DNA of 64,000 nucleotides from an uncultured virus (IMG/VR IMGVR_UViG_2799112477_000001) (Duplodnaviria; Heunggongvirae; Uroviricota; Caudoviricetes): IMG/VR virus record IMGVR_UViG_2799112477_000001; one strand, given 5' to 3'. Under the pieces are notes generated by a model. The model was given only the letters and a program-made list of their open reading frames with translations. It was not told the origin of the DNA and did no database searches. Position 1 is the stretch's first letter. Each line of letters opens with the position of its first letter. The translations under genes were made by a program, and so were the position numbers. Below are positions 2,056-64,000 of this stretch, one piece after another.

Positions 2056-2156
2056 CGATTTGACCCTTTGGAACTATGTAATCTCTACTAGGTGTAGATC
2101 TCTTGGTGATGGCTTTTTCTGTGCTGCTTCCCTTTTGAACTATGTAATCTCTACTA

Positions 2157-3359
2157 GTATTGCGTAACATCTAAATGTTTATTATCGGATATAACCTTTT
2201 GAGTTTGACTCGTGCGTCATCAGTTGTGAACTGCCAGTCAACACCACGCTGCTTCTTGTTGCGGTCAACATGCCACGGCTCCAAAAGTGCGTTGAGCGCT
2301 TCCAGATCTGGGATCCTCTGAGAGCCGATGCACTGCCTACCAAGAGCAGAGAGTTCGATCTCGGCAATGTTCAGCCAACTTCCGTGTTTCGGAGTGAAGT
2401 GGATCTCCAGCCTGCTTGCAAGCTCCAGTGCACGCTCCGGCTTGAAAGTCTGGTAGAGTGACGCGATCGTATGAGTGTTGAGATTATCCATAACGAGAAC
2501 GACTTTCTTAGCTGATGGGTACTGAGTATCAAGCAGCCATTCGATCTTTCTTGCCCAGTCCTCTCTGGTGCGATGCTCTTCAGCATATGCGTAGCGCCAG
2601 CCATTGAGAGGTTCGGTGAACAGGAAGATTGATGCAGTTCCGTTACGTATATACTCATAATCCTCGTATTCGGTTCTGCCATTCTTGGAGCGAAAGCCTT
2701 TTCTGGCATTGGCGAATAACTGGATAGGTTTCTCATCCATGCAGACTACAGGATAGTCTTCATCGTATGGTCGGCTGTATACAGTGAGGACATCCTCCAT
2801 CGCTGCAACGAATGCAGCACTATGATCAGGAGGAATGCACCAGCACGCGGGACACTGTCATATGAGACAGTGAATCCACGTAATTAAGCTCAACACATTT
2901 ATCTGCAAGAAGGCGAACGGTCCAACGCTCATAACCTTCAGGAGGTTCGCTGCAGGCAAGAGCGACTATGTGCGCCTCGACATCCCCGGTCACTTTGGCT
3001 GGTACAGGTGGAGTCTCTCTCTTCTTCCTGTAGATCGTTGATTCAAGGCCGTTGTTCACATATGATGCCCTGACGGTCTGAACTGTTGTCGGTGATGTGT
3101 GGTACGCATCGGCGATCTGAGCAACGGTCATCCGCTGCTTGGCGTTGCGATCCGAGGCGAGCAATATGTTTGCTCTCAATATCGTTTTGGCAGATGAACT
3201 GCCCTTTGCAACGATATCCTTAAGAATTTTCCGATCGGCATCGGTCAATTCAATCAAATATTTTACTGATGGCATATGACTATCCTCCCATCTCTTCTAA
3301 GATGAGAATATCATATACCAGAACAACATTTTATACAAGTTTTAGATGTTACAAACTAC
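2157..3359 (-). mobile_element. IS630-family insertion sequence (1203 bp)
   Basis: TA duplication at 2155-2156 and 3360-3361. 19-bp terminal inverted repeats GTATTGCGTAACATCTAAA / revcomp GTAGTTTGTAACATCTAAA (16/19 identical). Two-ORF HTH plus DDE transposase. Confidence 0.95.
2171..3275 (-). pseudogene. IS630 transposase in two ORFs (HTH 2826-3275; DDE 2171-2800), probably defective
   Basis: DDE motifs CMDEKP, VMDNLNTH and SWLNIAEIE. At the ORF junction SRVL runs directly into out-of-frame WCIPP, and the A-rich slippery segment usually found there is absent. Confidence 0.75.
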
Positions 3360-3559
3360 TAGGTGTAGATACGAGAGCCTAAAAATCGTATACATACGAC
3401 CTTTGGAACTATGTAATCTCTACTATGTGTAGATGTGAACTGGAAGAGCAATACCTTATCACTTCCTTTGGAACTATGTAATCTCTACTATGTGTAGATT
3501 TATAGAAAAATGGCAATTGAGCTCGCCGCCGAAAGGCTATAGAGAAAGGGGTTGATACC

Positions 3560-5290: not shown

Positions 5291-8200
5291 ATGAGTAAAG
5301 AATCAAAGCTGGAGCTTTTAGATCAGCTCGAAGAAAAAGTGGAACTTCTGCATGCGCAGACGAAAGAGACTCGGAAGTGCCTTGAGGCTGCAACCGAAAG
5401 GATAAGCTCTGACGGCGTGCTTGAAGTGACCAGAATAGACAGCATTCGAAAACTTCTGAGTGAAGTAAAGGCACTGACATTAACAAGCAGCTCTTTATTG
5501 AGCGAACTAGGCAGTGACGCAGTACCCGCTTCGTTTAGTGAGTTCTCTGAAGAGATAGAAGGGCTCAGACGGCTTCTGGATAAGTCGGTATACATCGAGG
5601 CAAGAGAGTTCCTTTTAAGGCTTCGGATCCACGACGAGAACATCGCGGAATTGTTTGCGAAGGTCAAAGAGGACCTGCTTTCTATGGATATCGAAAGCAT
5701 GTCTGCTAGTGACTGCGAGGAGAAGCTCGGTGATTATGTCATGCTGAGAAACCTTCTTGATCCTGCGACAGAAAACAGTGAAAAAGTCGGGTACATAACG
5801 AAGCTCAGCGGATCTTTCGACCAGCAGATCCTCGGACTTGCCTTCGGCGACGCGTATACCGTTGAGGAAGCGTCTGCGCTTGATGATTACAAAAAGGAAG
5901 AAAGCAGAATTGCAGATGGGCAGGAGATTATCCCAGTGCGGGGTGATGACCCGGTATCTGAAGATGACTTTGGCGATGATGTGACATCGAGCGAGGAGGC
6001 GCTGCCATTAAATGATGATGAAGATAAGTCCCCGTACCGTATACTTGCGGAAATCGCTGACTACCCGGTAGGAGTGGGAGATGGTGTCAATGTGAGCGTG
6101 ACTGAAACGGCTTCGCAGGCGAGCAAGGCCTTCAGCATCAAGAAGTTCAAGGAGAGCCTCCGGGGAGAATACCTTTCGAAAGGATGCCGCCGCATAATGG
6201 CAAACCTCGGGTTCAACATGGCTCTGCCGTGGGGAACAGAGGAAAATCCGTATATAGATGTCATCGAGAAGAAAACGGAAGTCAACCTTAACGAGTGTCA
6301 GGAATTCCTTCTCAGAAAAGGCTATGTAAGAAAGCTTTCGGCTGAAGGATATCCGCCGATCTGTGTTCTGACTAAAAAGGGCCTGGAGATCTTTAAGAGC
6401 AAGAGTGGGTGCGAGTTCATAGGCTTTAAGTATAATCCGGACAACAAACACCTTTATGTACCGGCAACATTCGAGGCTTATCAGACTATGCTATGCAGAT
6501 GCCACGCATGGAGATTGCTCAAGATGTCTTACAGCAGCAGCGATGCTGTCGCTGTGGATTTCCAGATAGTTGTCATGGCGCTTGAACCGGACAGGGTGAT
6601 GAATGTCCTTGTTACCAATGCCTGCCCGAAGGATACAGACGAATTCGAAGAGTATCTGGAACTGTTTACAGACAGCGTAGATGGACTGAATTTCAAGGAC
6701 GTTCTGATTTATGGCGCTACTATCGAAGAGGCAAGGAAACTCGCAGATATAGTTGTTAGGATTGCAGGCGAGAGTATCGATCCGGAAGAAACTGAAATTA
6801 AGCTTCTGACGCCAGAGACCCCGATCGGGGACAATGAGGACGTGAAGGTCACAGCTGTAACCCCGGCAAAGGATATGCCTTCGGAAGAATATAACTGTCC
6901 GTACTGCAACCAGCCATTGCAGGAGATAGTCAAATACGATGGAGAAGTCTTCTATGGCCATGAGGGAGGATGGAAGGCAGACGCGCCTTGCAAGCATACA
7001 TTCGGCAGTCTGGAAGAGATCACGGGCAGGAAGGGTGCTTCAGAGGCACCGAAAAAGCCGGACAGAAAGAAAAAGGCGGATTCTTCTGAGCCAAAGACTG
7101 AAAAGAAAAAGATGGCTGCCACTGACTCCAGGACTATAACCGAAGAATCAGAGCCTGTGCAGGCAGCTGCAGACAGCAAGCCTTCCGCTCAGAAGTCAAG
7201 AAAGCCTGTAGACAACGAGGTTCTCAAGAGGATAGAGCAGAAGGTAAGCAAATATGCTTCTGATGGCAAGATCTACTGTGCGACAGCTTATGCTACAGCA
7301 GCAGCGATCGGGAACCCTGATGCTGAAGGGCTCAGAGACAGGCTTGCATATGCGGTAAATGATCCCGCAGCGCACTGCATTTACACATCAGATAACCTGT
7401 TCAGCGTGTACACTGCATTTTCCAGCCAGGCGGATTACTATTATCAGACATCCGCTGTTCTGAGGCTGTTCTTCGCGGGCCAGGCCCGCTATGACTACAA
7501 TCTGCAGGCGATCCATGACTCTATCAACGGAAGCCCTGCACTTGAAAATAACAAGGCTCTGAACGATCTGATCTATACGCTCAGGGAGTTCAAGACAAAG
7601 ACCGGGTATTCTGTCGACAAATATGCTGACTACAGGAGCCGCGACAGGGTGGCCCTTGAGAAGGATCTTGCGAATATCCGCAAAGAGGCTTCTTCACACT
7701 ATATAAATGATGTAGAGCAGCAGCGCATGATCCGCACAAGGACTATTAGCAGAAGATATGAGGAGACCTGGAAGGGGATGTTCTCCAAGAGCGGAGATGT
7801 CGCAGTATATCTTAAAGCTGTGGCTGACGATGACGCGGAACTTCTTGAGCTTGCAGCGGATTATGTGGGCTCGACCTTCATCAAGGAAGGCCTTCCTGTA
7901 TCACCTGAGAACATAGATATGAGGGCGATCGAGCAGGCGATCGATGACGCGTGGGATAACGCGGGAAGCAGAGTTTCCCTCGTCATGAAGTCATCCACCC
8001 TTATGGGGCCGCTCAGAAACAATATGCGTCAGCATCTTTTGAAGGTGGTTTCATGCGTCTGCGAATGGATAGAGATCCATGAAACACTTGGTGACAGCAG
8101 AGACTCGGGCTATGAGGCATATACCGCAATAAGGAGCAAGGTGCTCGATCTTGCCCGCAATGCGATGGACAATATCGCGGCGGCGGGTGCGCCCGAGGAT

Positions 8201-10762
8201 GTGTCAGCAAGAGCGGGCATCAATGTGCTTACGAGGACGATCAGCGAGATATCGAGAAAGGTCGACGGCTCATATAAGCCGTCGGAACACGCTTATTTCT
8301 ACAAAGACTTCCTGAAAGACAATTACGTTATCCTTGATGAGGCCTATATGCCTGACTACGGGTGCAGCGTTCCGCTCGTTTCCGAGATGGATATGCTGAG
8401 GCTCATAGAAAAGCATGCATCAAACGAGGATGCGAGTATAGAGGATAACCTTTCAGATTACTGTCACGATAATTTCCGCAGCGCAGGACTTGCCGGGAAC
8501 TACATAGAGAAGTTCACTGGGAAGATGCCTGAGATAATGCTGACACTTGATGAGGCGGCAAAGTATGCCGAGGGGCAGATAGAGTTCTCACACAGAGACT
8601 TTGTCAGCGACCTTGAGCTCGCACAGAGCTACGGCCAGCTTGATGCCGACGAGAGCACAGACCGCAAGGACAGTCTTCTGAGGCTTGCAGACCACTGGTA
8701 TGAATGGGCCACAGAAACACATAACTACGGTTTCTATAAAGACCTTCTCGAGGAGATGAGGGCGCAGATCAGAACTGACGCCGAAGGAAGAGGCGTTGCG
8801 ATGAACATAGAGCTTACGTCACTTCTTACTGCGAACCCGGAGCTTGAAAGAGATCACGCAGAATATGTCACCAAGATCAGGGTCATGATCGATAAGCAGA
8901 ACTACCTTGTCTCCGAGGACATGATTAATCACCTTCTCGCAGGGGATATCCCGTCTGATGTGGATCTTTTCGAAGAGGATTACCTCGCTGACTTCCACAG
9001 AAGCTATGATTACTACTATAGACTCGCAGGCAAGAGCGGACAGGCACTTTCAAACCTTGTCAAGACAAACGATCTCAGATCTCTTACCAGCAAGGAGCAG
9101 AAGGGCGCTCTGAACCTCAAGAACAGCTGGCCTAATCCGGGCAAGTCTGTTACTACAGAAGCGCTTAAGACCATCCTTACAACTCTTGGTATCGACGCAG
9201 AGAAGGTAGCGGCCACAGACATCGCTAACAGCGTTTACTCTGTGAGAGTGAAAAAGCCGCTGCACGAGGACGAGCAGTCGTACGGACATCCTATCTATGG
9301 ATTCGGTTCAAGAGCTGCAAGGGACGGGTTCAGAGTCCTTTGGCTGTCGGGTGCTTACAGCGCAGATGCGCTTCTCACAAAGCAGAGAGAACTTGGAAGA
9401 GGAAAGCATACCATAGCATTCCTCGACCACGCGATGACTGAGAGTGAGAGGAGGCGTCTCGCAAGAAAGATAAAAGAGGACGGACTGTCAAGCATCTTCA
9501 TGGTCATTGACAGAGTCCTGTATATGTATCTGATCCACAACTATTCTGAAGCAACGGTCCGCATGCTTATGGAGACGGCTATGCCATACAGTTTCTTCCA
9601 GCCATATATCAGCGACTCGGCGACAGTTATGCCGCCGGAGATGTTCATCGGAAGAAAAGCTGAGCTTGAGAAGATAAAAGACCCGGCGGGCGTCAACATA
9701 CTGTATGGAGGAAGGCAGCTCGGTAAGTCGGCTCTTCTCAGAAAGGCAAAGGCGGATATAGACAGGGATCCTGAAGGGGACAGAGCACTCCTCATCGATA
9801 TAAAGGACCTTGATTACGAGAAGACCGCAGTCAAGATATCACAGGCTCTTTTCGATGAAGGCATCATAAATGAGCCTATAGATGACGAAACGAGCTGGGA
9901 TGATATTGCGAGAGCTATCAGAAAGGTGCTGAACGGATCACATAAGATCCACTATCTCCTTCTCATGCTCGATGAGGCAGACGCGTTCCTTGCAAGCTGC
10001 GAAGAGGTGGGCTACAGCCCGTTCAACGCACTCAAGGATATCCAGCAGAATGTCGAGCCGGGCAGGTTCAAATTCGTGGTGGCGGGACTCAGAAACGTAG
10101 TCAGGTTCACGAAGGCTGCGACGAGCGGGAACAGCGTTCTCCCGCATCTTGAGAGCCTTACGATAAAGCCGTTCACCACGGTGGAGGGAAGGATGCTTCT
10201 TGAGGAGCCGCTTTACTACCTCGGATTCAGATTCCCGGAGGAGAATATGGACCTCGTACCGATGATACTCGCGACGACCAACTACTTCCCGGGGCTTATA
10301 CAGCTTTACTGCAGCAAGCTCATAACGGCTCTTCGCAACAACTACGGCGGATATAACGAGGCGGAAACGCCGCCATACGTCGTATCTGAAGAGCTCATCA
10401 AGAAGGTGCTTGCTGAGTCAGACTTCAGAGCGCAGATCAGGGAGAAGTTCATGATCACGCTTATGCTCGGGGATGATGACTACTACTATATCCTTGCGCT
10501 GATCCTTGCATATCTTTACAGGAACTATGACAGCGAGGATGGATATACGGCAGCGGAGATCCTCGATGTGGCAAAAGAGTTCGAGATCAGCCGTATCGCT
10601 GATATGACTGTTGAGCAGGTACAGGCGCTGATGACAGAGCTTCGCGAACTCAACGTAGTCAAGGAAGCCGGCCACAAGTATCTGTTCGCAAGATACAACT
10701 TCAGCTCCATGCTCGGAAGCGCTGAGGAAGTCGACGATAAGCTCCTCAGCTACACAGAGTAG
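5291..10762 (+). CDS. 1823-aa protein with C-terminal STAND-like P-loop NTPase and an internal Zn-ribbon
   Basis: FIGRKAEL, Walker A GGRQLGKS, Walker B LLMLDEAD, TNYFPGLIQ and a winged-helix-like tail. CPYC...FYGH...PCKHT resembles a topoisomerase-type Zn ribbon. Confidence 0.75.
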   Translation: MSKESKLELLDQLEEKVELLHAQTKETRKCLEAATERISSDGVLEVTRIDSIRKLLSEVKALTLTSSSLLSELGSDAVPASFSEFSEEIEGLRRLLDKSVYIEAREFLLRLRIHDENIAELFAKVKEDLLSMDIESMSASDCEEKLGDYVMLRNLLDPATENSEKVGYITKLSGSFDQQILGLAFGDAYTVEEASALDDYKKEESRIADGQEIIPVRGDDPVSEDDFGDDVTSSEEALPLNDDEDKSPYRILAEIADYPVGVGDGVNVSVTETASQASKAFSIKKFKESLRGEYLSKGCRRIMANLGFNMALPWGTEENPYIDVIEKKTEVNLNECQEFLLRKGYVRKLSAEGYPPICVLTKKGLEIFKSKSGCEFIGFKYNPDNKHLYVPATFEAYQTMLCRCHAWRLLKMSYSSSDAVAVDFQIVVMALEPDRVMNVLVTNACPKDTDEFEEYLELFTDSVDGLNFKDVLIYGATIEEARKLADIVVRIAGESIDPEETEIKLLTPETPIGDNEDVKVTAVTPAKDMPSEEYNCPYCNQPLQEIVKYDGEVFYGHEGGWKADAPCKHTFGSLEEITGRKGASEAPKKPDRKKKADSSEPKTEKKKMAATDSRTITEESEPVQAAADSKPSAQKSRKPVDNEVLKRIEQKVSKYASDGKIYCATAYATAAAIGNPDAEGLRDRLAYAVNDPAAHCIYTSDNLFSVYTAFSSQADYYYQTSAVLRLFFAGQARYDYNLQAIHDSINGSPALENNKALNDLIYTLREFKTKTGYSVDKYADYRSRDRVALEKDLANIRKEASSHYINDVEQQRMIRTRTISRRYEETWKGMFSKSGDVAVYLKAVADDDAELLELAADYVGSTFIKEGLPVSPENIDMRAIEQAIDDAWDNAGSRVSLVMKSSTLMGPLRNNMRQHLLKVVSCVCEWIEIHETLGDSRDSGYEAYTAIRSKVLDLARNAMDNIAAAGAPEDVSARAGINVLTRTISEISRKVDGSYKPSEHAYFYKDFLKDNYVILDEAYMPDYGCSVPLVSEMDMLRLIEKHASNEDASIEDNLSDYCHDNFRSAGLAGNYIEKFTGKMPEIMLTLDEAAKYAEGQIEFSHRDFVSDLELAQSYGQLDADESTDRKDSLLRLADHWYEWATETHNYGFYKDLLEEMRAQIRTDAEGRGVAMNIELTSLLTANPELERDHAEYVTKIRVMIDKQNYLVSEDMINHLLAGDIPSDVDLFEEDYLADFHRSYDYYYRLAGKSGQALSNLVKTNDLRSLTSKEQKGALNLKNSWPNPGKSVTTEALKTILTTLGIDAEKVAATDIANSVYSVRVKKPLHEDEQSYGHPIYGFGSRAARDGFRVLWLSGAYSADALLTKQRELGRGKHTIAFLDHAMTESERRRLARKIKEDGLSSIFMVIDRVLYMYLIHNYSEATVRMLMETAMPYSFFQPYISDSATVMPPEMFIGRKAELEKIKDPAGVNILYGGRQLGKSALLRKAKADIDRDPEGDRALLIDIKDLDYEKTAVKISQALFDEGIINEPIDDETSWDDIARAIRKVLNGSHKIHYLLLMLDEADAFLASCEEVGYSPFNALKDIQQNVEPGRFKFVVAGLRNVVRFTKAATSGNSVLPHLESLTIKPFTTVEGRMLLEEPLYYLGFRFPEENMDLVPMILATTNYFPGLIQLYCSKLITALRNNYGGYNEAETPPYVVSEELIKKVLAESDFRAQIREKFMITLMLGDDDYYYILALILAYLYRNYDSEDGYTAAEILDVAKEFEISRIADMTVEQVQALMTELRELNVVKEAGHKYLFARYNFSSMLGSAEEVDDKLLSYTE

Positions 10763-15422: not shown

Positions 15423-16772
15423 TTACATTACCTGTCTCCAGCCACCAACGTGATGGAGGAGCCTTATTTTCCTCGGCGAAATATCGCCTCCTCCGATAAG
15501 CTGTACGCTTGCGCCCTTGTTGTGGGTGCCCTTGACTGTGCGATTTCTTCCTTCAAAGATGACGATGTCCCCGGGCTGGTACAAATATCGCTGCGTGCGA
15601 ATACTGCGCCTGCCTTTAGATACCTTCTTCCCGCGAAAGATGCGCTCATTTTGAGAGTTGCTTCGTGGTATCGATCTTGAGGTGCGGTTACACCCGAGTT
15701 CCGCCGCCTTCTTCGTTTTGCCGTCACGTATGTCCACATATTTCGCGTCATAGAACTTCTCGAGTATGCGGTTGTTACGGCGGCGCTTCTCGAAGTAAAG
15801 CGTCCTTGTGCGGTGCTTCGGTCTCAGGCTGCCGATGCAATAGGCATCGTTAGCGTGTGACTTCCCGATATTGAGATCTATCCTCGTGCGTTTCGTCACG
15901 GCACCGTAGGTGATACTTGCCTCGACACCGAAGGATTTTACATCTTCGTAGATATGCCACTTTACGGTATTCATGAATGACGCGGACGCCATGCCTTTTG
16001 GTGGTTTCAGATCCCAGAGCTTTCCGCCCGGCTTATGGTTCTTCGGGCTATGGCACTTCTCGCATACTGTAGCTAGATTTGACAGCCTGTTTGACCTGTC
16101 ACCGGCACGGAAGCCGACATGGTGGATGCGAAGTATCACCCCGTCATGTATAGCCGACTTACCGCAGCAGAGACATCTGTAACCGTCTCTTGCAAAGACT
16201 GCTTCTCTCAAAGTGTCGTATCCGTATCTTGGACCGTGCTGATAGTCAGTACCGACCGGGATCGGCTTGCCCTGCTCGACAACGGTAAGGACCGCCGGAT
16301 CGAACTGTCCCATCTCCAATGTGACTTTTGTTATTGGGCAGACCTCATCGTACATCCTGAAGATGTCTATGTGGCGGTCCGCTTTGTTCCTGAGCGACGG
16401 AGCGAGCCAGCCTTCAGGCTTATTTCTGTTGTCGAAGCGTACCTTACGATAACGCTTTCTGTTACGCCTGGGTCTTCTCACCTCGCGGCGCTGATCGTCG
16501 TGGTGCTGTTTCTCGTCTTTGAGAAGCGTGTACTCCGCACTCACATATTCTTGTTTCTCCGATTTCAGAGAGACTCCGATATGCTGATACCCGGTATCCA
16601 CGCTCAGCTCGACTGGCTGTACTCCGCTTGTTGTATCGTACAAAAGCTGCACAGTGAACGGCTGATGCTTCACGATTTTCGCTCTTCCTGATCGGAGGAG
16701 CTTTCGGATCTTCCTGATGTTCATCGTTGGCATCAGCCTCTCGCCTTCTGCCGATATGACAAAGATTGTCAT
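15423..16772 (-). CDS. iscB: IscB RNA-guided endonuclease
   Basis: PLMP-like RLMP, RuvC-I SVDTG, Arg-rich bridge helix RRPRRNRKRYRKVRFDNR, RuvC-II TLEMG, HNH CLCC..HH..N..NL...CEKCH and RuvC-III SHANDA. Confidence 0.95.
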   Translation of the reverse strand: MTIFVISAEGERLMPTMNIRKIRKLLRSGRAKIVKHQPFTVQLLYDTTSGVQPVELSVDTGYQHIGVSLKSEKQEYVSAEYTLLKDEKQHHDDQRREVRRPRRNRKRYRKVRFDNRNKPEGWLAPSLRNKADRHIDIFRMYDEVCPITKVTLEMGQFDPAVLTVVEQGKPIPVGTDYQHGPRYGYDTLREAVFARDGYRCLCCGKSAIHDGVILRIHHVGFRAGDRSNRLSNLATVCEKCHSPKNHKPGGKLWDLKPPKGMASASFMNTVKWHIYEDVKSFGVEASITYGAVTKRTRIDLNIGKSHANDAYCIGSLRPKHRTRTLYFEKRRRNNRILEKFYDAKYVDIRDGKTKKAAELGCNRTSRSIPRSNSQNERIFRGKKVSKGRRSIRTQRYLYQPGDIVIFEGRNRTVKGTHNKGASVQLIGGGDISPRKIRLLHHVGGWRQVM

Positions 16773-16789
16773 GCGCTCCTCCTTTCTGT

Positions 16790-17155
16790 TGTTTCCTTTA
16801 CTGTAACTTGTTTTGCCTTACGGCTTCCGTATACCGTTCCTCCGAAGAAGGCGTATACACGGGTTCTCGCCCCGTAGGGCGGGGTCCACATCGCCAATGT
16901 TATTCCGCGGTTTGCTGATATACGCACTTCGGCTGCCCATCACCGATGTTTAACGCATATCCGTAGTGCCAGGGACTTGTGGAGCATCCCGGGGTACCTA
17001 TGCTTGATACAAGGAGGGACCCGCTATGCGGGAGGATTCCTTATATCGTTATTCGCGGATAACGTAGTGCACTGAGCACTTAGGCTAATCAACTGACTTG
17101 TTTTCACAAGCCCCCGCTTCAAAGCTCGTCAGAGCATAAGCGGTGGGTGGTTGAC
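16790..17155 (-). ncRNA. omegaRNA (HEARO-type) scaffold; the guide would derive from the flank at 17156 and above
   Basis: About 370 nt of non-coding, hairpin-rich sequence upstream of iscB, containing GTCAAC...GTTGATTAGCCTAAGT...ACTACGTT...AACATTGGCGA. The 3' boundary is approximate. Confidence 0.85.
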
Positions 17156-29500: not shown

Positions 29501-30295
29501 TCAGCTTTTTTTAGCTGACTTTTTTACATAATGCATTTTTTTCCTACGCCTTCCTCTACAAATTGGACATGATTCAATGCCTCTCATTTTGTTTTCTACT
29601 CTAGCATTAATAGCCATTTCATATATATGGTCATCGTTGTTTTCGCATTCCCAAAACACAACACTTGTATCATTTTCAGTTACGTGATTTGGATTAACAT
29701 TAAGGTAGTTGTTATACTTATAGAACCAGTACTTCATTAGATCTTCTTGCCGTGCTGCAAAACTGTTAGCGCGGCGAGCACATATAGGGCAAGCGATATT
29801 CCCCGCTTTTTTACACTGCACACGACTTCTCGGAGTCATACTGTAACTGTGCCCCAAACTGCACTTTAATTCGACCGGCCTATTATAATTCTCCGCTATT
29901 TCCCATGGATCAACCTCATTCTTTTCATAATCCCATTCCGGAAGCAGATCCTCATTCAGAGCTGCAAAACTGTTAGCGCGGCGAGCACATATAGGGCAAG
30001 CGATATGTCCTGTTTTTTTACACTGCACACGCTTCATCGGAGTCATACTGTAACTGTGCCCCAAATTGCAATTTAAATTGACTGGCCTTTCATAATTCTC
30101 CGGTATTTCCCATGGATCAACTTCATTTCTCTCATAGTCCCATTCCGGAAGCAGATCCTCATTCAGAGCTGCAAAACTGTTGACATCAGGTATTACCACA
30201 CGACCAGCACAGACCGGGCAAGCGATATGCCCTGCTTTTTTACGCCGCACACGACTTCTCGGAGTCATACTGTAACAAAGTGAAGAAACATGCAA
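29501..30295 (-). CDS. DUF4379-like zinc-ribbon repeat protein, apparently 5'-truncated
   Basis: Repeats of NSFA..N.DL..EWDYE.N...P.........C..GH.Y.......CP.C; 207-bp DNA period (29754, 29961, 30168). Confidence 0.75.
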   Translation of the reverse strand: MHVSSLCYSMTPRSRVRRKKAGHIACPVCAGRVVIPDVNSFAALNEDLLPEWDYERNEVDPWEIPENYERPVNLNCNLGHSYSMTPMKRVQCKKTGHIACPICARRANSFAALNEDLLPEWDYEKNEVDPWEIAENYNRPVELKCSLGHSYSMTPRSRVQCKKAGNIACPICARRANSFAARQEDLMKYWFYKYNNYLNVNPNHVTENDTSVVFWECENNDDHIYEMAINARVENKMRGIESCPICRGRRRKKMHYVKKSAKKS

Positions 30296-50313: not shown

Positions 50314-50389
50314 TGGAGCTTCGGGCAGGATTCGAACCTGCGCTACCTTCACCTACGGATGGTAGACTTGCCTATTATCTTACCGAAGC
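50314..50389 (-). tRNA. Atypical tRNA (76 nt; loop CGTAGGT would give TAG, but U33 is missing)
   Basis: Acceptor GCTTCGG/CCGAAGC-T-CCA, T arm GCAGG-TTCGAAT-CCTGC, and a mismatched anticodon stem. Confidence 0.6.
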
Positions 50390-50588
50390 ACAATGTTGCA
50401 GCCATCATACAGACTACCATGTCATCTCAAATGTCTAGGATTCGAACCTGACTGTATGTGCGAAGGAATGCGCGCGTTTCGCGACTGCAACTTGTCGTCT
50501 TACCATTTTGGCTTCACTCAACATTGGTAACGCAGGGCCAGACGTACACCGCTGCGACTTAATCCCCCGTTGGCCTTCCGGGTTGAGT

Positions 50589-50667
50589 TGGAGCTTCGGG
50601 TAGGAGTCGAACCTACATACAACTGCGTTTGCATACAGTTTGCTCTGGCCAATTGCGCTACCGAAGC
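50589..50667 (-). tRNA. Atypical tRNA with an expanded (8-10 nt) anticodon loop
   Basis: Acceptor GCTTCGG/CCGAAGC-T-CCA, D arm with TGG, AACTG-TATGCAAACG-CAGTT, and T arm GTAGG-TTCGACT-CCTAC. Confidence 0.65.
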
Positions 50668-50671
50668 ATAT

Positions 50672-50765
50672 TGGTGGAGATGCCCCGATTCGAACGGGGT
50701 GCGGGCTGTCATTAGTCGATTACCGTGAGCCCAGAGCCCGTGCATTGCCATTCTGTCACATCCCC
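50672..50765 (-). tRNA. tRNA-like RNA with alanine identity elements and an aberrant anticodon arm
   Basis: Acceptor GGGGATG/CATCTCC (G3-U70), A73, CCA; T arm CCCCG-TTCGAAT-CGGGG; stem CGGGCT/AGCCCG closes 27 nt. Confidence 0.6.
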
Positions 50766-52330: not shown

Positions 52331-52405
52331 GGCAGGGAGTAGAGGAGTCAAACCTCTGTCTGCGGCCATGGTTCTCGCCGCTCTTCACCGCTAAGCTAAC
52401 TCCCT
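52331..52405 (-). tRNA. Atypical or pseudo tRNA
   Basis: Acceptor AGGGAGT/ACTCCCT, T arm AGAGG-TTTGACT-CCTCT, and an irregular anticodon loop GAGAACCATG. Confidence 0.5.
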
Positions 52406-52413
52406 ATACGTAA

Positions 52414-52454
52414 GTTTGTACTTATATTGTACAATCGGTTTGTACTTATGTCAA
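52414..52454 (-). promoter_or_regulatory. Sigma-A promoter of the tRNA-like cluster with tandem direct repeats
   Basis: TTGACA-17-TACAAT; GTTTGTACTTAT occurs at 52414-52425 and 52438-52449. Confidence 0.8.
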
Positions 52455-52826
52455 GCAATCCATCGGATAGGTTTTGTTAGTGAAAGAAAAGACCGCTTTT
52501 CAGCTGAAAGCTGTCTCTATCAAAGGGTGGTCTAATTTATCTGTACTTGTATGCGTGCAACATATCGGCTAATACCATAACGCTGCTCGCAACGCTCAAC
52601 ATGATTGGTGGCAGTCTTCAGCACGGCTCTCTGGAAGGGCGTGTCTTTGACAGCAAGCTGTCTCTTCGCAGCTTTTTCCATGAGCAGCATCGTGCGCATT
52701 CTGTCGAGGGCATACGCCTCAACAGCAGCTTCATCCAGCCAGTCAGGCTCTTCAGCTTTATACGGATTATATTCCATTTCTGCCATCGCTATGCACCTCC
52801 TTGTCGTAATTATAAAAGAGGGTATT

Positions 52827-53648
52827 TCAATTCGTTTTCCAGCTTGATCCTGTCACATAGTCTATGGATATCCCTGGCTCTACGTTATAGCAGAAAACGT
52901 TGATATGAAACTTCGTTCCTCTGCTCTCTACGTCGCCTGCTTCGATATGTACGCCTCTACAGACCAGCTCGTTGCCTTTGAAGACAGGAGTTGCACGGTA
53001 TAGGATCCTTCCGCCCTTTCTCAGGAGCCAGTTCTGCGTAGCTTTCTCCGCATAGGACAGCTGACCATCGACATTCATATATTCAGTGCCTGTGACAAGG
53101 TTCCTCGGATCATCTGTAATCCCTGAGACCGCATACATTATGAGGTGGCAGCGGTTGTACAGCCATCCGCTGTTTCTGCTGATTAGGTCAGGATATTGCG
53201 CCTGGTTCCAGCCTGAAGGAGTGACATGCGACAAGTCAAAGTCTCTTTCCCCTTCCGGTATCGTGTCTTTTCCAAGTGAAGCTTCACACGCACCGCATCT
53301 GCCGAGCCAGTCGAGCTCGGACAATTCTATATACATAGATTCTGCTTTCTTGTAATCCTCTTCCGTGAATTCCGGTTTGTTCCCGTTCAGGACATAGGTT
53401 GGTGTACCGGAGTATTCAGGGATAGAATCCAGAAGGCTGCTCTTTTCTGTCTGCATTGGAGCGGGTCTGTTTTCTGCCTGTTCAGCAGATTTGTCTATAT
53501 CCTGTATGCTTCCGAACTCACCGGGAGGATCCACTATCACAGAGTGCTGTCGCATCGTATATATGCCCGCACCAATGACTAGCAGCATAATCAGCAGCAT
53601 TCTTACTGTTCTGTATAATTTTTCTTTCTTGCTGTATGGATATTTCAT
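52827..53648 (-). CDS. Membrane-anchored DNA/RNA non-specific endonuclease (DNA-entry nuclease type)
   Basis: N-terminal TM segment, LD.LGRC, PSGWNQ, YNRCHLI, NLVTGT.YMN and YRATPVF.GNELV.RG. Confidence 0.88.
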   Translation of the reverse strand: MKYPYSKKEKLYRTVRMLLIMLLVIGAGIYTMRQHSVIVDPPGEFGSIQDIDKSAEQAENRPAPMQTEKSSLLDSIPEYSGTPTYVLNGNKPEFTEEDYKKAESMYIELSELDWLGRCGACEASLGKDTIPEGERDFDLSHVTPSGWNQAQYPDLISRNSGWLYNRCHLIMYAVSGITDDPRNLVTGTEYMNVDGQLSYAEKATQNWLLRKGGRILYRATPVFKGNELVCRGVHIEAGDVESRGTKFHINVFCYNVEPGISIDYVTGSSWKTN

Positions 53649-53659
53649 CTATTTCTGTT

Positions 53660-53847
53660 CTGTTCGTCCATTTTGCCGCGCAGAATCTACATATTATATA
53701 TAGTAGAGATTTTTGTTTTGAGTCGGTAAATACTTCAGCACCGGCAGACCTTCCCGGAAGTAGAGATTTTGCGACAAGCAACAAGCACAAGTACCTATCT
53801 ACACCATGCGCATATATATGATATCCCTGCGCAGGCAAGTAGAGATT
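53660..53847 (-). CRISPR. Non-canonical Cas12a mini-array with loop-expanded handles
   Basis: AAAATCTCTACT occurs three times on the - strand (core at 53838-53847, 53759-53768, 53702-53711). Two copies are closed by TGTAGAT (GTAGAT at 53797-53802 and 53685-53690). Confidence 0.75.
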
Positions 53848-53881
53848 TTTAGCGGAAGCATGCTCTGCCGCGCTGTCAATG

Positions 53882-56800
53882 TTACTGTTCCTGTATATGC
53901 TGCAGCCAGTCGCTGCTTGATATAGACAGAGATACAGGTTTTGTCGTTTTGTCCCCTGCCCGTGCTGTCAGAGCTTCTTCTGACGCGCTCTTGATTCTAT
54001 TGACTATCATCAGCCCCTTGCGGGCAATGTTGTATGCGCTATTATCGTCCTTTGGCGCTTCGAAGAAGCTTCCCGTGGCCAGATCCATGATTGGTGAAAC
54101 GATATTTGATCCTGTGCGCATCTGTACGATGAGGCCAAAGAGCGCAAGAAGTTCTTCGTGGAAACTCTTATCGGTCATGCTGCACAGAGCTTCTCTGAGG
54201 TCCTCTGAGCTTTCATCGATACCGTGGTCGTTCAGAAGGCCTGTGATCGACTCCGTCAGATTGATAGGCTTATAGTTTATGCCTTTATCTCCTCTGACCG
54301 CACGGATCCGCTCTCCATGTGAGAAAACGCTCCATTTCATCCTGCAGCCATCGAGCTGCTTCAGCCTGTTCTCGCTTATAAAGTAGCTGTAGTCGAAGTC
54401 GAATCTGTACGCCCTGACCTCTTCGTCGTAAACGATCCTGTCAAAGGCGTGCCAGAAGGCTTTGGCTGCGGGGATGTTTGTGTATCTGGTATCAAACAGG
54501 TTCACAAATCCTGTATTCGAATCTATTTCTGTGATCTTCCACGGCGAAACGTAGAAGATAAAACCTGTCTGTTTTCCGATCTTGTCGAAGCTTTCGAACG
54601 GAGCTGTCAGCTGATAAGCTCTGTAGATCCCGCCCGGTTCATCCGGTTCAGCGGATTTGTTTACAAGCAGATTCAGCTTGCTTATAAGGCGTGCTTCAAG
54701 CTGCTGATATACAGCTTTTTCTATCTTCTGGCGCTGCTGTTTGAACCCGAGGCTCATATCCTCGATCGCTATTACTGCGTCGTATTTGAGCATAAGGTCG
54801 GCAAGGATGCGCACGACCTGCCCGATGTAGCCGTCTTTAAGCTGCTTTATGCCCTCTACTGATTCCCAGCTCTTTCTTTCAGCCATACGCTGGAGTTCTC
54901 TGCTTTCAAGGAGCTTCGCATAGTCGGTCTTCTTAGGCTTACTGCCGGAAGCCTGCTCTATGACGTTGAGAGATCTGTTCTCTAAAACATTTCCCTTTGG
55001 GTCAAGGACGCAGAGCTGGATGAGATTGTTTTCTCCCCTGCTCACACCGATGACATGTACGTTGTCTTCCTTCTTTATAGCGAGTCTCGCTTCGGTGTTG
55101 ATAAAGCTGAAATTCGTTGCGGAAGCATTTATGGTGATCGGCACGTTGAGCTGAAATTTGTTTACCGTGAATCTGCGGTCCTTTACGATGTCATACTTAA
55201 GGACCTTGCTCCTCTTCGGATTCAGAGGGTTCTTTGCTGCTACTACATCGCCTGCCCTGTGGATCACGGCATCTTCCGGTTTTATGGATGCCTGTCTGAA
55301 GAAAAGTTCTGCTCCTCCGTTGAGTCTGCAGATCGGGGGCTCCCCGTTTCTAGGATCAAACAGTGCTCTCCAGTAAATAGTTGACAGGTCCGGTTTGCCG
55401 TATGCCTTGTTGCTGAAATCCCTGTGCCAGATTTCGAAGAGATAGAGCTGCCCGTTCTCTACAAGCTCGTTTACGACAGCTGTATCTATCGGTCTGTACT
55501 TTAGCGAATATCCTGCTGTTTCTACTTCACGGAAGAAGCATGAGATATCCTCGTAAGCAGCAGTTTCCGAGAATTTAAAGGAGAACATCTGCCATGCGTC
55601 CGTGACTGCGATACAGTCCTTGTAGAAGTCGATGAGCCTGTGGCAGTCTTCAAGGCTGAAGTCTTTTCCCTTCTTGAAGGTGCCACTCTTGTAAATGCGC
55701 ATGATGTCTTCTGAAGGTTTGTAGTTTTCGATCCCCTTTCTGGAGAAGATAACGTGCGGAAGAGCTTTGTTGGCTCCGGTCAGCAGGTTGTACCTCATCT
55801 TCATATAGACATCGTCCGTTACTGCTTCAGGGACCTTTTTGAACAGGTTGCCCTGCCCTTTTGCAATGATCCCAAGATAGTATTTGCCGTCTTTCAGAAG
55901 CAGCGTTCCGAGCTTTGCGCTTTCAACGCTTTCCGCCCAGCCGTCGAGGAGGAGGGAAGAACCGAAGTTGAGTTTGACCTTTTCAGTCGTATATATCTTG
56001 CCTGAAAGGTAGTTTCTGGTTTTGTTGTAGATGGAAGTAACAGCATTCAGCGCGTCCATCAGCGGCTCATAATCTGTGTAGAATGCGAGATCTTTGTCTC
56101 CCGTCCTGACGGAAAGGTTCTCTGTAGAGCGTCTGATGTTCAGGGCCGCGTCAAGGTATTCCTTTATAACGGCTTTTGCCTTGCTGCTGCTTTTGAGGCT
56201 TCTTGGCTCTGAGCCTCTCATCTGAAGGAATGCGAGGAGGTCTCTTCTTGCCAGATCGAAAGACATCTTGCAGAAGCCTGCCTCGCCCGTTATGTATGTC
56301 GACAGCTTCCCGTCTATTCCCGGAATGATATCCAGTTCTCCGATGCTGTAATACTCTTTCTTTCTCAGCGCTGTGTCTTTCTGCTTACGGTATGCTGCGG
56401 AACGGCGCCTCTTTTCGGTCACATCCTGTTCGAAATCGTATTTATCCCCGAGAAGATCTTTCATCTTACTCCAGGATCCGAGCATCTTATTCGATATGTC
56501 ATTCAGAGCTTTTGTCCTGATGTATATTCCGTTAAGATCGTAGCCTCCTATGGAGCTTATGAGGGCCGTCATGCCTTCCGCTGCAGGCCTGAAGAGCTCA
56601 TCCAGCGCGAGGAGCGCGTCTATTACCTCATCGTCTTCTCTGAACGCTTCAGGGATGAACGAGAGTGTCGTTCTGTCGCTCAGGATCTGCTTTTTCAGAG
56701 GTGTCAGCTTGGGAAGACGGTCTTCTTTGCTTTCAGCTGCCTGATTTGCCAGGTTGATGTATTCGTTCAGGCCTTTTATCTTAGTCCCGTCTTCTTTTGC

Positions 56801-57535
56801 AAAGCCGCCGATAAGCTGGTTGTATCTGTCTATGCCGCTCTGGGCCATTACCTTGCTGAAGCCTTCAACGGAGAAGGAGTCAGACATGCTGTCATCGCCA
56901 AGCAGTGCAGCTAGTTCTTTTTCAGCTGTCTTTATATTGTCCGGGAGAACTTCTGAGATCCTCGTGAATTTCCTGTGGTTATCGAGGAAGATAGGCAGGT
57001 TGTCGTCTATGATCCTGCCGGCGACCGAACCACTCTTTCCGGAAGCGTCATATATGAGCCTCCTGTTATTGTGGTATCCGGTGAAGTAAGATGCGAATCC
57101 TTCAAAGCTGCTTATAGCTGCCATTGCTTCTGCGTCATTCTCATACATAGCAGGAAGAAGCTTGTCGAAGAGATCCGCCTTAAAGAGGTCGTTATAGCCT
57201 TTTGCGCCTGTGAGATCATTTGATATATTCTCAGTCATGCGCCTTGCGAGGTCATTCATTTCCTCTCTGGCCTCATCGCCCTTTTCCGGGTGGAAGTAGA
57301 GATCTGCATATGCGGTAAGATCGCTCCCGAGGGAAAAGCCATTAAGAGTATTTTCTATGTGGGTTTTGTGGAGCCCGTCTATGAGCTTCTGGACTTTCTT
57401 CTTTTCCTCTGCCCGTCTTGTGTCCTCTTCTATGATCCCCCGCTCTTCGATGTATTCGAGGGTCTTCCCCTGCGGGATCAGGCCGAATCTAAGCGTTTTG
57501 CTGATCTTGTAAAGATTTGTGAAATTCTCGTACAT
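53882..57535 (-). CDS. cas12a: Cas12a (Cpf1), predicted nuclease-inactive (RuvC-I D>S)
   Basis: FTNLY..SKTLRF.L.PQGKT, KGLNEYINL, LKKQILSD, YNKTRNYL, LNGGAELFFR, KDRRFT and AYNIARKG. RuvC-I reads IGVSRGENNL. Confidence 0.95.
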   Translation of the reverse strand: MYENFTNLYKISKTLRFGLIPQGKTLEYIEERGIIEEDTRRAEEKKKVQKLIDGLHKTHIENTLNGFSLGSDLTAYADLYFHPEKGDEAREEMNDLARRMTENISNDLTGAKGYNDLFKADLFDKLLPAMYENDAEAMAAISSFEGFASYFTGYHNNRRLIYDASGKSGSVAGRIIDDNLPIFLDNHRKFTRISEVLPDNIKTAEKELAALLGDDSMSDSFSVEGFSKVMAQSGIDRYNQLIGGFAKEDGTKIKGLNEYINLANQAAESKEDRLPKLTPLKKQILSDRTTLSFIPEAFREDDEVIDALLALDELFRPAAEGMTALISSIGGYDLNGIYIRTKALNDISNKMLGSWSKMKDLLGDKYDFEQDVTEKRRRSAAYRKQKDTALRKKEYYSIGELDIIPGIDGKLSTYITGEAGFCKMSFDLARRDLLAFLQMRGSEPRSLKSSSKAKAVIKEYLDAALNIRRSTENLSVRTGDKDLAFYTDYEPLMDALNAVTSIYNKTRNYLSGKIYTTEKVKLNFGSSLLLDGWAESVESAKLGTLLLKDGKYYLGIIAKGQGNLFKKVPEAVTDDVYMKMRYNLLTGANKALPHVIFSRKGIENYKPSEDIMRIYKSGTFKKGKDFSLEDCHRLIDFYKDCIAVTDAWQMFSFKFSETAAYEDISCFFREVETAGYSLKYRPIDTAVVNELVENGQLYLFEIWHRDFSNKAYGKPDLSTIYWRALFDPRNGEPPICRLNGGAELFFRQASIKPEDAVIHRAGDVVAAKNPLNPKRSKVLKYDIVKDRRFTVNKFQLNVPITINASATNFSFINTEARLAIKKEDNVHVIGVSRGENNLIQLCVLDPKGNVLENRSLNVIEQASGSKPKKTDYAKLLESRELQRMAERKSWESVEGIKQLKDGYIGQVVRILADLMLKYDAVIAIEDMSLGFKQQRQKIEKAVYQQLEARLISKLNLLVNKSAEPDEPGGIYRAYQLTAPFESFDKIGKQTGFIFYVSPWKITEIDSNTGFVNLFDTRYTNIPAAKAFWHAFDRIVYDEEVRAYRFDFDYSYFISENRLKQLDGCRMKWSVFSHGERIRAVRGDKGINYKPINLTESITGLLNDHGIDESSEDLREALCSMTDKSFHEELLALFGLIVQMRTGSNIVSPIMDLATGSFFEAPKDDNSAYNIARKGLMIVNRIKSASEEALTARAGDKTTKPVSLSISSSDWLQHIQEQ

Positions 57536-62800: not shown

Positions 62801-62935
62801 GTCGGTCAGTGTCTGCTTATACACTCCTAGCTTTGGATCATAGACGTCAGAAGTATTTGTATAACCGCCGTAATGCAGAAGTGATGACTCTATATCCTGC
62901 TCAAAGCGCTTCTCATTAGTCTGGTCTATTGCCAT
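59900..62935 (-). CDS. hsdR: Type I restriction enzyme R subunit
   Basis: D......NGIP....ELKN nuclease motif, [24 protein letters not shown] and QTLSRLNR. Confidence 0.95.
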
Positions 62936-64000
62936 CAGTTACCCTCTTTCTTTTTGTTATCTCTTGCACTGTATACGAAATCACTACGATCAAGGCCATA
63001 TCTATCAACCAGTGCGCGTATAATACACATAATAGTTGCCGCAGAGAACCCTGAACTTTCATAGATTTCGGAATCAGCCACCTTCAAATTGCTGCCCCAT
63101 GTCAGCTTGTAGTCATACGAAAACATCACTACACTGGACCATTCAAGAATATTCTCGTTACTTCTTGCCATGCTCTCTATCAGGCTAGGATCAAGCTCAT
63201 AAAGCTTGTCTATGAAGATCCTGAGCATCTCTGCGAAGTTTGATGCCTTGATGCGTTCTCCCATAAATACGAAGTAGTTTGGTGCTTTATAAGTCGCATC
63301 CTCAGGATTTTCGCAGGTGTACTCTTTATATCTAGGATCAGCGAATGATACTACTTTCTCAGGCTTATCATATCTGAACATGTCAAGAATCATCTTTGAC
63401 AGTCTTTCTGCTCTTGCCTCGATCGTATCCTTGTTCCATGCTGTAAGACCTTTGACGTCTTTGTTCAGGATCACTACTTTAGTTCCCTTTTCATCAAGCA
63501 TGTCAAGTTTCTGAAGGAACGGTCTGTCGCCCAGTTCACTGTTATGCCCGGTAAGAGTAAGGTTGCCCAGTGTATGCAGATATGTGTTTCTTACATTTTC
63601 ATAGTCGGTCCCGAGCATATTCTGCCAGTTTGTAGACAGATTCTTATTCTGAGGCATAATGTGCTCGATAGTCAGATTATCTGTAAGTATTTGTTCCTTA
63701 CTCTGATTTTCTATAGATGTGAGCAGGAATCTGCAAAGAGCATATTTGTGATAAAGGTCGTTCTTCTTCAGTGCTTCAAGGAATGTTAGATCTCGAGGCA
63801 TCTCATCTCTGGAAGTCAACTGGGTCAGGAATGAAACTATCGAATCATAGTAATGTTCCTTGTTCTCCGGTACATTGAATACTCTTGTATAGAGTGTCTT
63901 GTACAGTCCTCTTAATGAGTTCGAAGCGATTTCACACATGGTGCGGCGTACACTATATGAAACAAGAAGTCTTAAGGTCTTAACAAGCTCCTTCTCGCTT
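62935..64000 (-). CDS. GmrSD-like (DUF1524 HNH) restriction protein, 5' end outside window
   Basis: TIEHIMPQ...LGNLTL...NSELG; the frame is open to the window edge. Confidence 0.8.

Follow-up and report, generated by a model that had tools for sequence, protein, structure and literature searches.

What might a Cas12a that has lost a catalytic residue of its DNA-cutting site do for the mobile element that carries it? The question is raised by a 64,000-nucleotide (nt) stretch of DNA, hereafter the window, which is listed as an uncultured virus of the Caudoviricetes (IMG/VR record IMGVR_UViG_2799112477_000001) and corresponds to positions 92396-156395 of contig C42; coordinates are positions in the window unless another contig is named. 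On its minus strand lies a cas12a gene whose product has serine at the place of the RuvC-I aspartate. This Ser832 is a genuine conserved trait of a clade, and the gene is found together with guide units of its own on a contig of a ruminant gut bacterium; from its gene content we take this contig for a conjugative plasmid-like replicon. The reading put forward here, which in our judgement has an even chance of being right, is that the plasmid Cas12a would act as a guide-programmed binder, leaving double-stranded DNA (dsDNA) uncut, in conflicts between mobile elements.

The cas12a Gene and Its Catalytic Residues

The open reading frame (ORF) starts with ATG and runs through 1217 codons with zero internal stops. 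The features on which the argument turns are the following:

53882..57535, minus strand: cas12a, 1217 amino acids (aa), with Ser-Glu-Asp instead of the Asp-Glu-Asp RuvC triad
55040..55042, minus strand: AGC codon of Ser832, aligned to the RuvC-I Asp832 of LbCas12a; invariant in 15/15 clade clusters
54761..54763, minus strand: GAG codon of Glu925 (RuvC-II, IAIED), kept and clade-invariant
54044..54049, minus strand: GAC GAT codons of Asp1163 (RuvC-III, KDDNSAY) and Asp1164; the retained Asp1163 lies at 54047-54049
55181..55261, minus strand: RNase residues H759 (55259-55261), K768 (55232-55234) and K785 (55181-55183), placed by alignment to LbCas12a

The REC1-REC2-WED/PI-RuvC-Nuc architecture is complete and full-length, as seen from the presence of 5/5 Cas12a domains in a Pfam scan, a score of 1093 bits against the NCBIfam equivalog TIGR04330 (cut-off 300), and a match at E 6e-246 to LbCas12a chains of known structure (6kl9 and others). 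ReChb, a synthetic construct according to one source, gives the best match. By scripted placement 'IGVSRGENNL' begins at residue 829, and in a residue-by-residue alignment Ser832 pairs with the Asp of 'IGIDRGERNL' in LbCas12a (Lb), the AGC codon differing from GAC at two positions. The triad is thus Ser832-Glu925-Asp1163 and departs from the canonical Asp-Glu-Asp; mutation of the RuvC-I Asp in Cas12a abolishes DNA cleavage. In the same alignment H759, K768 and K785 pair with the same-numbered Lb residues and R1140 with the Nuc arginine Lb R1138, and gaps of 3, 4, 11 and 2 residues relative to Lb precede RuvC-III, where D1163 corresponds to Lb D1180. An earlier note on this DNA, made from the sequence alone and giving no strand for the gene, had described an uninterrupted 1217-aa Cas12a with Ser832 replacing the RuvC-I Asp, E925 and D1163 retained, and a Nuc/RuvC-III region shorter than in LbCas12a, all of which is borne out. 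Its further statement that the CRISPR RNA (crRNA)-processing site is kept holds for the plasmid Cas12a and fails in its closest relatives, the 98%-identical proteins of metagenome contigs L088 and L089, which carry H759R.

Serine 832 in the Clade

A word-indexed protein search returned 2058 proteins at E <= 1e-20, and the best 120 of the 2058 were aligned with the query. Among these 121 aligned proteins Ser832 (IGVSRGE) is present in all 15 of the nearest clusters (P0001-P0015; 98%, then 50-56% identity), and Asp occupies the RuvC-I position in all 106 of the more distant ones (P0016-P0121; 44% identity or less). The Asp-type set used for comparison below consists of 105 natural proteins, synthetic ReChb being excluded. 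In a FastTree phylogeny of 59 rows (every one of the 15 Ser-type proteins and, from the natural Asp-type set, 44 of 105, with column 832 removed and ReChb omitted) the Ser-type proteins form one branch with support 100, within which path lengths are about 1 substitution per site. Across the 15 clusters S832, E925, D1163, K768 and K785 are invariant, and H759 and R1140 are each found in 14/15. The cas12a genes of L088 and L089, identical to each other and 98% relatives of the window gene, use the same AGC codon, and comparison with L088 gives a ratio of non-synonymous to synonymous substitution rates (dN/dS) of 0.28, from small counts (25 synonymous and 26 non-synonymous differences). Because AGC is shared by L088 and L089 and Ser is found in all the nearest clusters, the residue is beyond chance or error. 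The earlier note had asked whether the change marks a clade under purifying selection or whether close homologs all carry Asp; the first is answered in the affirmative by the 15/15 Ser, the single branch and the dN/dS, and the second in the negative, Asp appearing only at 44% identity or less.

That the serine might be a sequencing or assembly error, or a recent inactivation in a decaying pseudogene, is contradicted by these data and is in our view hardly credible. The genome is a draft (59 contigs, 2.52 Mb, 85.6% complete), and an insertion sequence (IS) element disrupts one of the guide arrays described below, both of which might favor such an explanation. Opposed to it, besides the shared codon, the dN/dS and the intact frame, are the invariance of Ser in a clade at 50-56% identity and the recurrence of the DNA itself: 18 sequencing runs, from ruminant and other animal gut metagenomes, each contain half or more of the words sampled from the stretch, and the runs listed as carrying it span 11 studies, six of the runs being possibly the source sample. 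Assembled contigs from other runs match closely, with 1 difference over 3912 nt of the gene region in run X7 and 27 differences over 4663 nt in run X9.

A search for further loci of the clade gave at least two among the metagenome contigs (L088, L089); among genome contigs 80 Cas12a loci were found, all at 43% identity or less and none belonging to the clade, and a Cas12a search of viral contigs gave no Ser-clade locus. PLSDB yielded one distant Butyrivibrio Cas12a (23.5% identity), and the phage collection gave no match.

Guide Units beside the Gene and at a Distance

CRISPR-type guides, which were absent from the earlier note's description, are found both beside cas12a and 50 kb away:

53797..53847, minus strand: handle R_A, AATCTCTACT followed by a 36-nt loop and GTAGAT; begins 37 nt past the cas12a stop
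53770..53796, minus strand: spacer A of the proximal mini-array, 27 nt, identical in L088/L089
53759..53768, minus strand: 5' half of handle R_C, with no GTAGAT of its own
53685..53711, minus strand: handle R_D, with a 12-nt AT loop; ends 36 nt short of the ATG of the following gene
2065..3499, plus strand: distal CRISPR array, beginning 10 nt past the topoisomerase III stop, with four 35-nt repeats ending AATCTCTACTAKGTGTAGAT
2065-2099 (R1), 2131-2156 and 3360-3370 (left and right parts of R2), 3400-3434 (R3), 3465-3499 (R4): repeats of the distal array
2100-2130 (S1, 31 nt), 3371-3399 (S2, 29 nt), 3435-3464 (S3, 30 nt): spacers of the distal array
2157-3359: IS630-like element splitting R2 at TA, with DDE_3 and helix-turn-helix (HTH) ORFs and imperfect terminal inverted repeats

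Since the 5' part found in a normal repeat is missing from the proximal units, they are termed handle-only. L088, L089 and the contig of run X9 have one additional 47-nt unit before R_C, composed of a handle (R_B, with a GATT loop) and a 26-nt spacer. Every complete handle folds into a 5-bp UCUAC/GUAGA stem, the loop of R_A forming an extended hairpin, and the units are of the Cas12a type (a UCUAC-loop-GUAGAU handle), with AAUC for AAUU and loops of up to 36 nt as variants. Three solitary handles lie outside the window: H1, 25 nt past one ORF and about 140 nt before the start of topoisomerase III, and H2 and H3, near the end of contig C42. The 2.52-Mb genome contains nine complete handles, all on C42 and three of them within 165 nt after cas12a; the remaining 9-mer matches (19 seen, about 19 expected) are chance background, and a handle-like match on contig C2 was dropped for want of GTAGAT. 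In all copies on C42 TCTACT is preceded by AATC. Among 106 other Cas12a loci having three or more repeats the preceding bases are AATT in 105 and AATC in none, which makes the handle of the plasmid distinctive.

These units bear on two further explanations. According to the first, which we regard as quite unlikely, the protein and its solitary repeats would be anti-CRISPR mimics, a dead Cas12a soaking up or displacing the crRNAs of an active type V-A system in a recipient cell, or shielding protospacers of the plasmid, which would thus be protected as it enters. The carrier is conjugative, H1-H3 and the handle-only units resemble RNA anti-CRISPRs, solitary repeat units borne by mobile elements (PMC10651486), and a phage Cas9 with a dead RuvC is proposed to be a mimic in PMC10910872. 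Against mimicry, all local handles have C before UCUAC where 105/106 other array-bearing loci have U (AATT), arrays with distinct spacers are retained, a second Cas12a was not found in the host genome (85.6% complete), and of the host's family, in which 150 other genomes were searched, just 2 have Cas12a, both Asp-type. The clade-wide changes at positions presumed to read the protospacer adjacent motif (PAM), described below, would moreover prevent the shielding of TTTV-flanked protospacers. The earlier note's suggestion of a sink for host crRNAs is disfavored for the same reasons, namely the element's own distinctive guides with their AATC handle, the lack of another Cas12a found in the host, and the rarity of Cas12a in the family.

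The second, to which we give less credence still, is that polycistronic RNA of the plasmid would be the main substrate, the RNase site cutting handles that lie between its genes and Cas12a staying at the resulting 5' ends and setting stability or translation of the genes downstream. DNA targeting would then be secondary or lost; such a role and DNA binding could also go together. The arrangement of the handles is compatible with such regulation. They are on the coding strand, in the gaps that separate genes of the same direction, H1 near topoisomerase III and the distal array 10 nt past its stop, R_D ends 36 nt before the ATG of a nuclease gene, and H2 and H3 are upstream of the minus-strand string that runs from restriction genes to cas12a; the RNase residues are conserved in 14/15 members, and loops of 12-36 nt would be tolerable only if the stem is what counts. 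A pure RNase, on the other hand, would have no need of the REC lobe, the PI domain and the bridge to RuvC, all conserved at full length; the nearest relatives carry H759R, and the spacer-sized, strain-variable units look guide-like.

Changes That Accompany the Serine

In the Ser clade 33 columns are replaced that show at least 95% conservation in the Asp-type set of 105. Position 832 and five others are given here in query numbering:

832: Asp in Asp-type proteins, Ser in the Ser clade; Lb D832
836: Arg in Asp-type proteins (105/105), Asn, Lys or Ser in 15/15 of the Ser clade; Asn in the plasmid Cas12a
537: Lys in Asp-type proteins, mostly Val in the Ser clade; Lb K538; Val in the plasmid Cas12a
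591: Met in Asp-type proteins, variable in the Ser clade; Lb M592; Ala in the plasmid Cas12a
594: Lys in Asp-type proteins, His in 14/15 of the Ser clade; Lb K595; His in the plasmid Cas12a
169: Thr in Asp-type proteins, Gly in the Ser clade

We take Lb K538 and K595 to be residues that read the PAM, K538V and K595R presumably being substitutions used in engineered PAM variants. A loop ahead of RuvC-III is deleted in the clade.

Other Cas12a Lineages with Altered RuvC Carboxylates

The C-terminal 517 aa were searched against 1.84 billion 50%-identity representatives. Among the 150 matches listed the Ser clade is represented by one full-length entry, P0012 (651 bits), followed by a match of 415 bits, and the 147 rows, query included, that had enough of the region were placed on a tree. 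Substitutions at one of the three carboxylates occur in 22 of the 147 rows (20 of 145 besides the query and P0012), with N, K, H, S, T or A at RuvC-I and A, S, T, Y or E at RuvC-III; the tree requires about 11 changes, of which well-supported branches make at least six unavoidable. With weak support (84) the Ser clade joins five further substituted representatives, having Asn or Ser at RuvC-I, and three of these five are also without the RuvC-III Asp (SES, NET, SES), which would fit the decay of a dead site.

Two of the altered forms could be seen in their genomic context. Directly 3' of the Lys-type Cas12a gene of contig L145 (10001-14959) is a regular array of at least 18 repeats, and upstream are a type IV secretion system (T4SS) coupling protein and a resolvase. 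The Asn-type Cas12a of L160 (21-3703) and L161 (2514-6256) has one solitary handle 60 nt past its stop and TnpB, DUF3849 and HTH genes as neighbors. No adaptation genes were found in the available flanks of these loci, which represent two independent RuvC-I-substituted lineages among conjugation or mobile-element genes.

The Plasmid-Like Contig

Contig C42 (162,836 bp) encodes a Rep3 initiator, ParA/ParB, two VirD4/TraG coupling proteins of a T4SS and a TraG-type ATPase. It also encodes a large M23/NlpC/CHAP cell-wall hydrolase, a sortase with SpaA/TQ adhesins, single-stranded DNA-binding proteins, topoisomerase III, integrases and a type I restriction system. Its ends gave no overlap in a circularity check; the related contigs L088 and L089 are 156 and 154.5 kb long. 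The earlier note's statement that the window lacks cas1, cas2, cas4 and Tn7-like genes agrees with our searches. No match to the Cas1, Cas2 or Cas4 families was obtained in the host genome at its 85.6% completeness, and Tn7-type families were found neither among the 80 scanned window ORFs of 70 aa or more nor on the rest of the contig. A TniQ search of the genome had no match, the control search being equally without one.

Proposed Binding without Cutting, and What Opposes It

From these observations we infer a loss of cleavage, a processing of guides, binding to DNA and a biological role in the following manner. The cas12a gene would be transcribed together with the handle-only mini-array downstream of it, and the retained RNase site of the WED domain (H759/K768/K785) would cut 5' of each AAUCUCUACU...GUAGAU handle, releasing a handle with a guide of about 27 nt, with the distal array and solitary handles providing additional guides. 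The PAM beside the DNA that the complex recognizes would probably differ from TTTV, the PAM-reading positions having been replaced clade-wide. Formation of an R-loop might then keep rival plasmids or phages from being transcribed or replicated, a mode of action demonstrated for Cas12m and type IV-A and, for Cas12b3 on its plasmid, a predicted one.

Several observations support this reading of a guide-programmed binder. The locus has its own guides, in a mini-array that differs by one 47-nt unit between strains. Support may also be drawn from the clade-wide Ser832 under purifying selection on a conjugative contig in whose genome Cas1, Cas2 and Cas4 were not found, from the replacement of R836 in 15/15 members with the deletion of a loop before RuvC-III, from the other RuvC-I-substituted lineages (L145, L160/L161) on mobile elements with adjoining guides, and from published precedents of RuvC inactivation in other type V subtypes. 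The domestication proposed in the earlier note stands in part: a conserved clade, a mobile element without adaptation or Tn7 genes and RNase residues kept in 14/15 clusters agree with it, and its nuclease-dead and DNA-binding components are predictions.

Other observations weigh against a binding-only role, and the first group of them concerns the nuclease itself. Position 1164, which is Ala in 104/105 Asp-type proteins, is Asp or Glu in 10/15 Ser-clade members, a gain by which a carboxylate could be relocated. The invariant S832, E925 and D1163, with R1140 in 14/15, seem unlike a freely decaying site. Columns that were invariant ancestrally are kept at 74/101 in RuvC and Nuc and at 119/178 in the rest of the protein; therefore, the nuclease lobe is decaying no faster than the remainder.

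These same observations favor a rewired nuclease, an explanation that we judge unlikely. In it Ser-Glu-Asp with Asp/Glu1164 would still cleave, perhaps by nicking, on single strands, on RNA or with another metal, and targets would be destroyed. Besides the carboxylate at 1164 and a RuvC and Nuc no more relaxed than the remaining domains, it can call on the strict invariance of the triad over about 1 substitution per site and on the Nuc arginine, and the 2023 TnpB/Cas12 census (PMC10691335) takes conserved, specific alterations to imply retained activity in many TnpB/Cas12 groups. Ala1164 is kept in 5/15 members of the clade, which speaks against a universal compensation. The known loss of Cas12a DNA cleavage upon mutation of the RuvC-I Asp likewise disfavors a rewired site, as does the additional loss of the RuvC-III Asp in weakly grouped relatives, and the occurrence of N, K, H, T or A at RuvC-I elsewhere points to loss of Asp as what matters, not to a role specific to Ser.

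The remaining difficulties for a guide-programmed binder lie in its targets, its expression and the sampling of its clade. Ten guides were searched, and zero targets emerged across all searches made. In the genome itself no match other than self exceeded 16 nt, a chance level. The phage and plasmid collections, queried by BLAST (E up to 1) with the proximal-array stretch and distal positions 3357-3540, which cover spacers 2 and 3 and leave out spacer 1, gave no match, and exact 22-mers from four spacers had 0 matches each in IMG/VR. In 2.4 Mb of other loci collected for comparison the spacers matched only themselves, save that the H3 spacer shares 16 nt with four Moraxella loci related to one another (E 0.008), a match judged to be chance. 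Nor was CreR-like autoregulation apparent, two 8-nt prefix matches upstream of cas12a not being significant against about 0.5 expected. Expression is hinted at by contigs from two metatranscriptome libraries of one sample, which cover parts of the gene; these short contigs lie over 22-23 of 30 bins and none over 53535-53948, and DNA carry-over may explain them. Finally, DNA flanks have been seen for one Ser-clade sub-lineage only (the window, L088 and L089).

Neighboring Genes and Other Elements of the Contig

The cas12a gene is the penultimate gene of a minus-strand string comprising hsdM, hsdS, a GmrSD_C protein, hsdR, small ORFs, cas12a, the mini-array and an Endonuclease_NS_2 protein. Features adjoining cas12a are:

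52827..53648, minus strand: Endonuclease_NS_2 domain protein with an N-terminal hydrophobic (membrane) helix, syntenic with cas12a in L088/L089
57799..58625, minus strand: two ORFs upstream of cas12a (151 and 123 aa) with weak likeness to ArpU/phage transcription regulators, in a block conserved with L088/L089
57729..57758, minus strand: promoter-like site with a TG-extended -10 (10/12 matches, by consensus match only), about 195 nt upstream of the cas12a start codon

A hairpin and T-run lie between the promoter-like site and the cas12a ATG. The block from the small upstream ORFs to cas12a is 98.3% identical to L088/L089 and the endonuclease gene about 95.7%, and the flanks differ. In run X7 the differences in the endonuclease gene are mostly at 3-nt spacing. 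Recruitment of this endonuclease by Cas12a was considered and set aside, as the N-terminal membrane helix makes it look extracellular.

The protein between hsdS and hsdR (62935-63939, minus strand), which has a GmrSD_C-type endonuclease domain and is cut by the window edge, matches the PADLOC 'Orf5' and HEC-06 models. An IscB gene (RRXRR and HNH) at 15423-17155 on the minus strand is accompanied by a HEARO/omega RNA (Rfam RF02033, 115.6 bits), and the same contig has at least two more RRXRR ORFs and a TnpB (L176 6676-8025, 9153-10616 and 13019-14146); the plasmid therefore has several RNA-guided nuclease families. At 50314-50765 and 52331-52405, minus strand, ARAGORN finds four tRNA-like genes, namely Leu(tag), Gln(ctg) and two more whose anticodons have four bases (gcaa) and two bases; of the four, Rfam confirms only two as tRNA. 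At 52414-52460, where a tRNA-like gene is separated from an 84-aa ORF, are two tandem, operator-like units of 23-24 nt (GTTTGTACTTAT...CAATC). An ORF having three DUF4379 treble-clef zinc-finger stretches contains, at 29754-30181, 2.1 copies of a 207-bp unit (91% match). On the plus strand at 5291-10762 is an 1823-aa ORF with only a weak AAA_22 match, followed by a 347-aa ORF without a family match.

Relation to Known Systems

The plasmid Cas12a resembles canonical Cas12a (LbCas12a) in its complete domains and length, its RNase residues, RuvC-II Glu, RuvC-III Asp and Nuc Arg, and the UCUAC/GUAGA stem of its handles. It differs in the RuvC-I Ser and the nearby Asn for Arg, in the deleted loop before RuvC-III, in V, A and H at the positions of Lb K538, M592 and K595, and in a handle with AAUC, not AAUU; no cas4-cas1-cas2 was found, and the guides are in handle-only mini-arrays and solitary units on a plasmid. 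In a V-K CRISPR-associated transposon, by contrast, tnsB/tnsC/tniQ stand beside the effector, and none of these is among the window ORFs or on the rest of the contig. Among other type V effectors, those of V-B use a trans-activating crRNA and the V-A family processes its own crRNA; Cas12m and Cas12c use the RuvC site for crRNA processing, for which Cas12a has the separate WED site.

Inactive type V effectors on mobile elements are already established. The 2025 classification (PMC12669027) records RuvC inactivation in V-C and V-M, predicts it in V-O and V-P, and makes no mention of a V-A case in its passages on such inactivation. It also describes Cas12b3, a type V-B variant that has been inactivated; a conjugative plasmid of Actinomyces carries it together with a mini CRISPR array, and interference by binding is predicted (PMC12669027). 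The likeness to the plasmid Cas12a is close, both being large type V effectors with a substituted RuvC on a conjugative plasmid beside a mini-array, with interference by binding predicted only; the plasmid Cas12a is of subtype V-A, not V-B, and has only RuvC-I replaced. Cas12m (V-M) and Cas12c (V-C) silence by binding and interfere with plasmids and phages without cutting dsDNA, often without adaptation genes, according to PMC11013384, PMC10442227 and PMC12669027; they are small, unrelated Cas12 branches, unlike the plasmid Cas12a. Type IV-A3 systems on conjugative plasmids have no adaptation module and perform nuclease-independent silencing in inter-plasmid conflict (10.1101/2023.06.23.546257, PMC11519345). 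They differ in having a class 1 multi-subunit effector, a DinG helicase and known plasmid targets, none being found for the plasmid Cas12a.

Altered Cas12a branches have also been noted in print. Section 8 of PMC10691335 has one sentence on Cas12a branches with altered catalytic sites, giving there no residues, loci, guides or function, and warns that conserved alterations may retain activity. The Ser clade is very likely one of these branches. Full-text literature searches found no characterized natural nuclease-inactive Cas12a, and the supplements of that census may list the clade. The present finding goes further than the earlier description because it comes with its guides and its plasmid.

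A broader reading, improbable in our estimation though not to a high degree, would make this Cas12a an instance of a recurrent plasmid weapon parallel to type IV. A dedicated Cas12a lineage would have given up cutting, with a strictly conserved Ser-Glu-Asp pocket, a switched PAM reader and a private handle, and one protein would process plasmid transcripts at the handles and also silence rivals through programmable binding. Its scope would be the conjugative plasmids of gut Firmicutes with streamlined, handle-only guide cassettes within plasmid operons, and Lys-, Asn-, His- and Thr-type lineages would be counted in.

Significance

Genome editing relies mainly on two enzymes, of which Cas12a is one, and to our knowledge every nuclease-dead Cas12a (dCas12a) in use is engineered. 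A natural, long-conserved, non-canonical clade reveals which changes accompany the loss of the Asp, in the PAM reader, in the handle, by deletion of a loop and possibly by an extra carboxylate, and its locus offers ready-made minimal guide cassettes. If the plasmid Cas12a is indeed a guide-programmed binder, the rule that plasmids favor binding-only CRISPR effectors (types IV, V-M and V-B3) would extend to type V-A.

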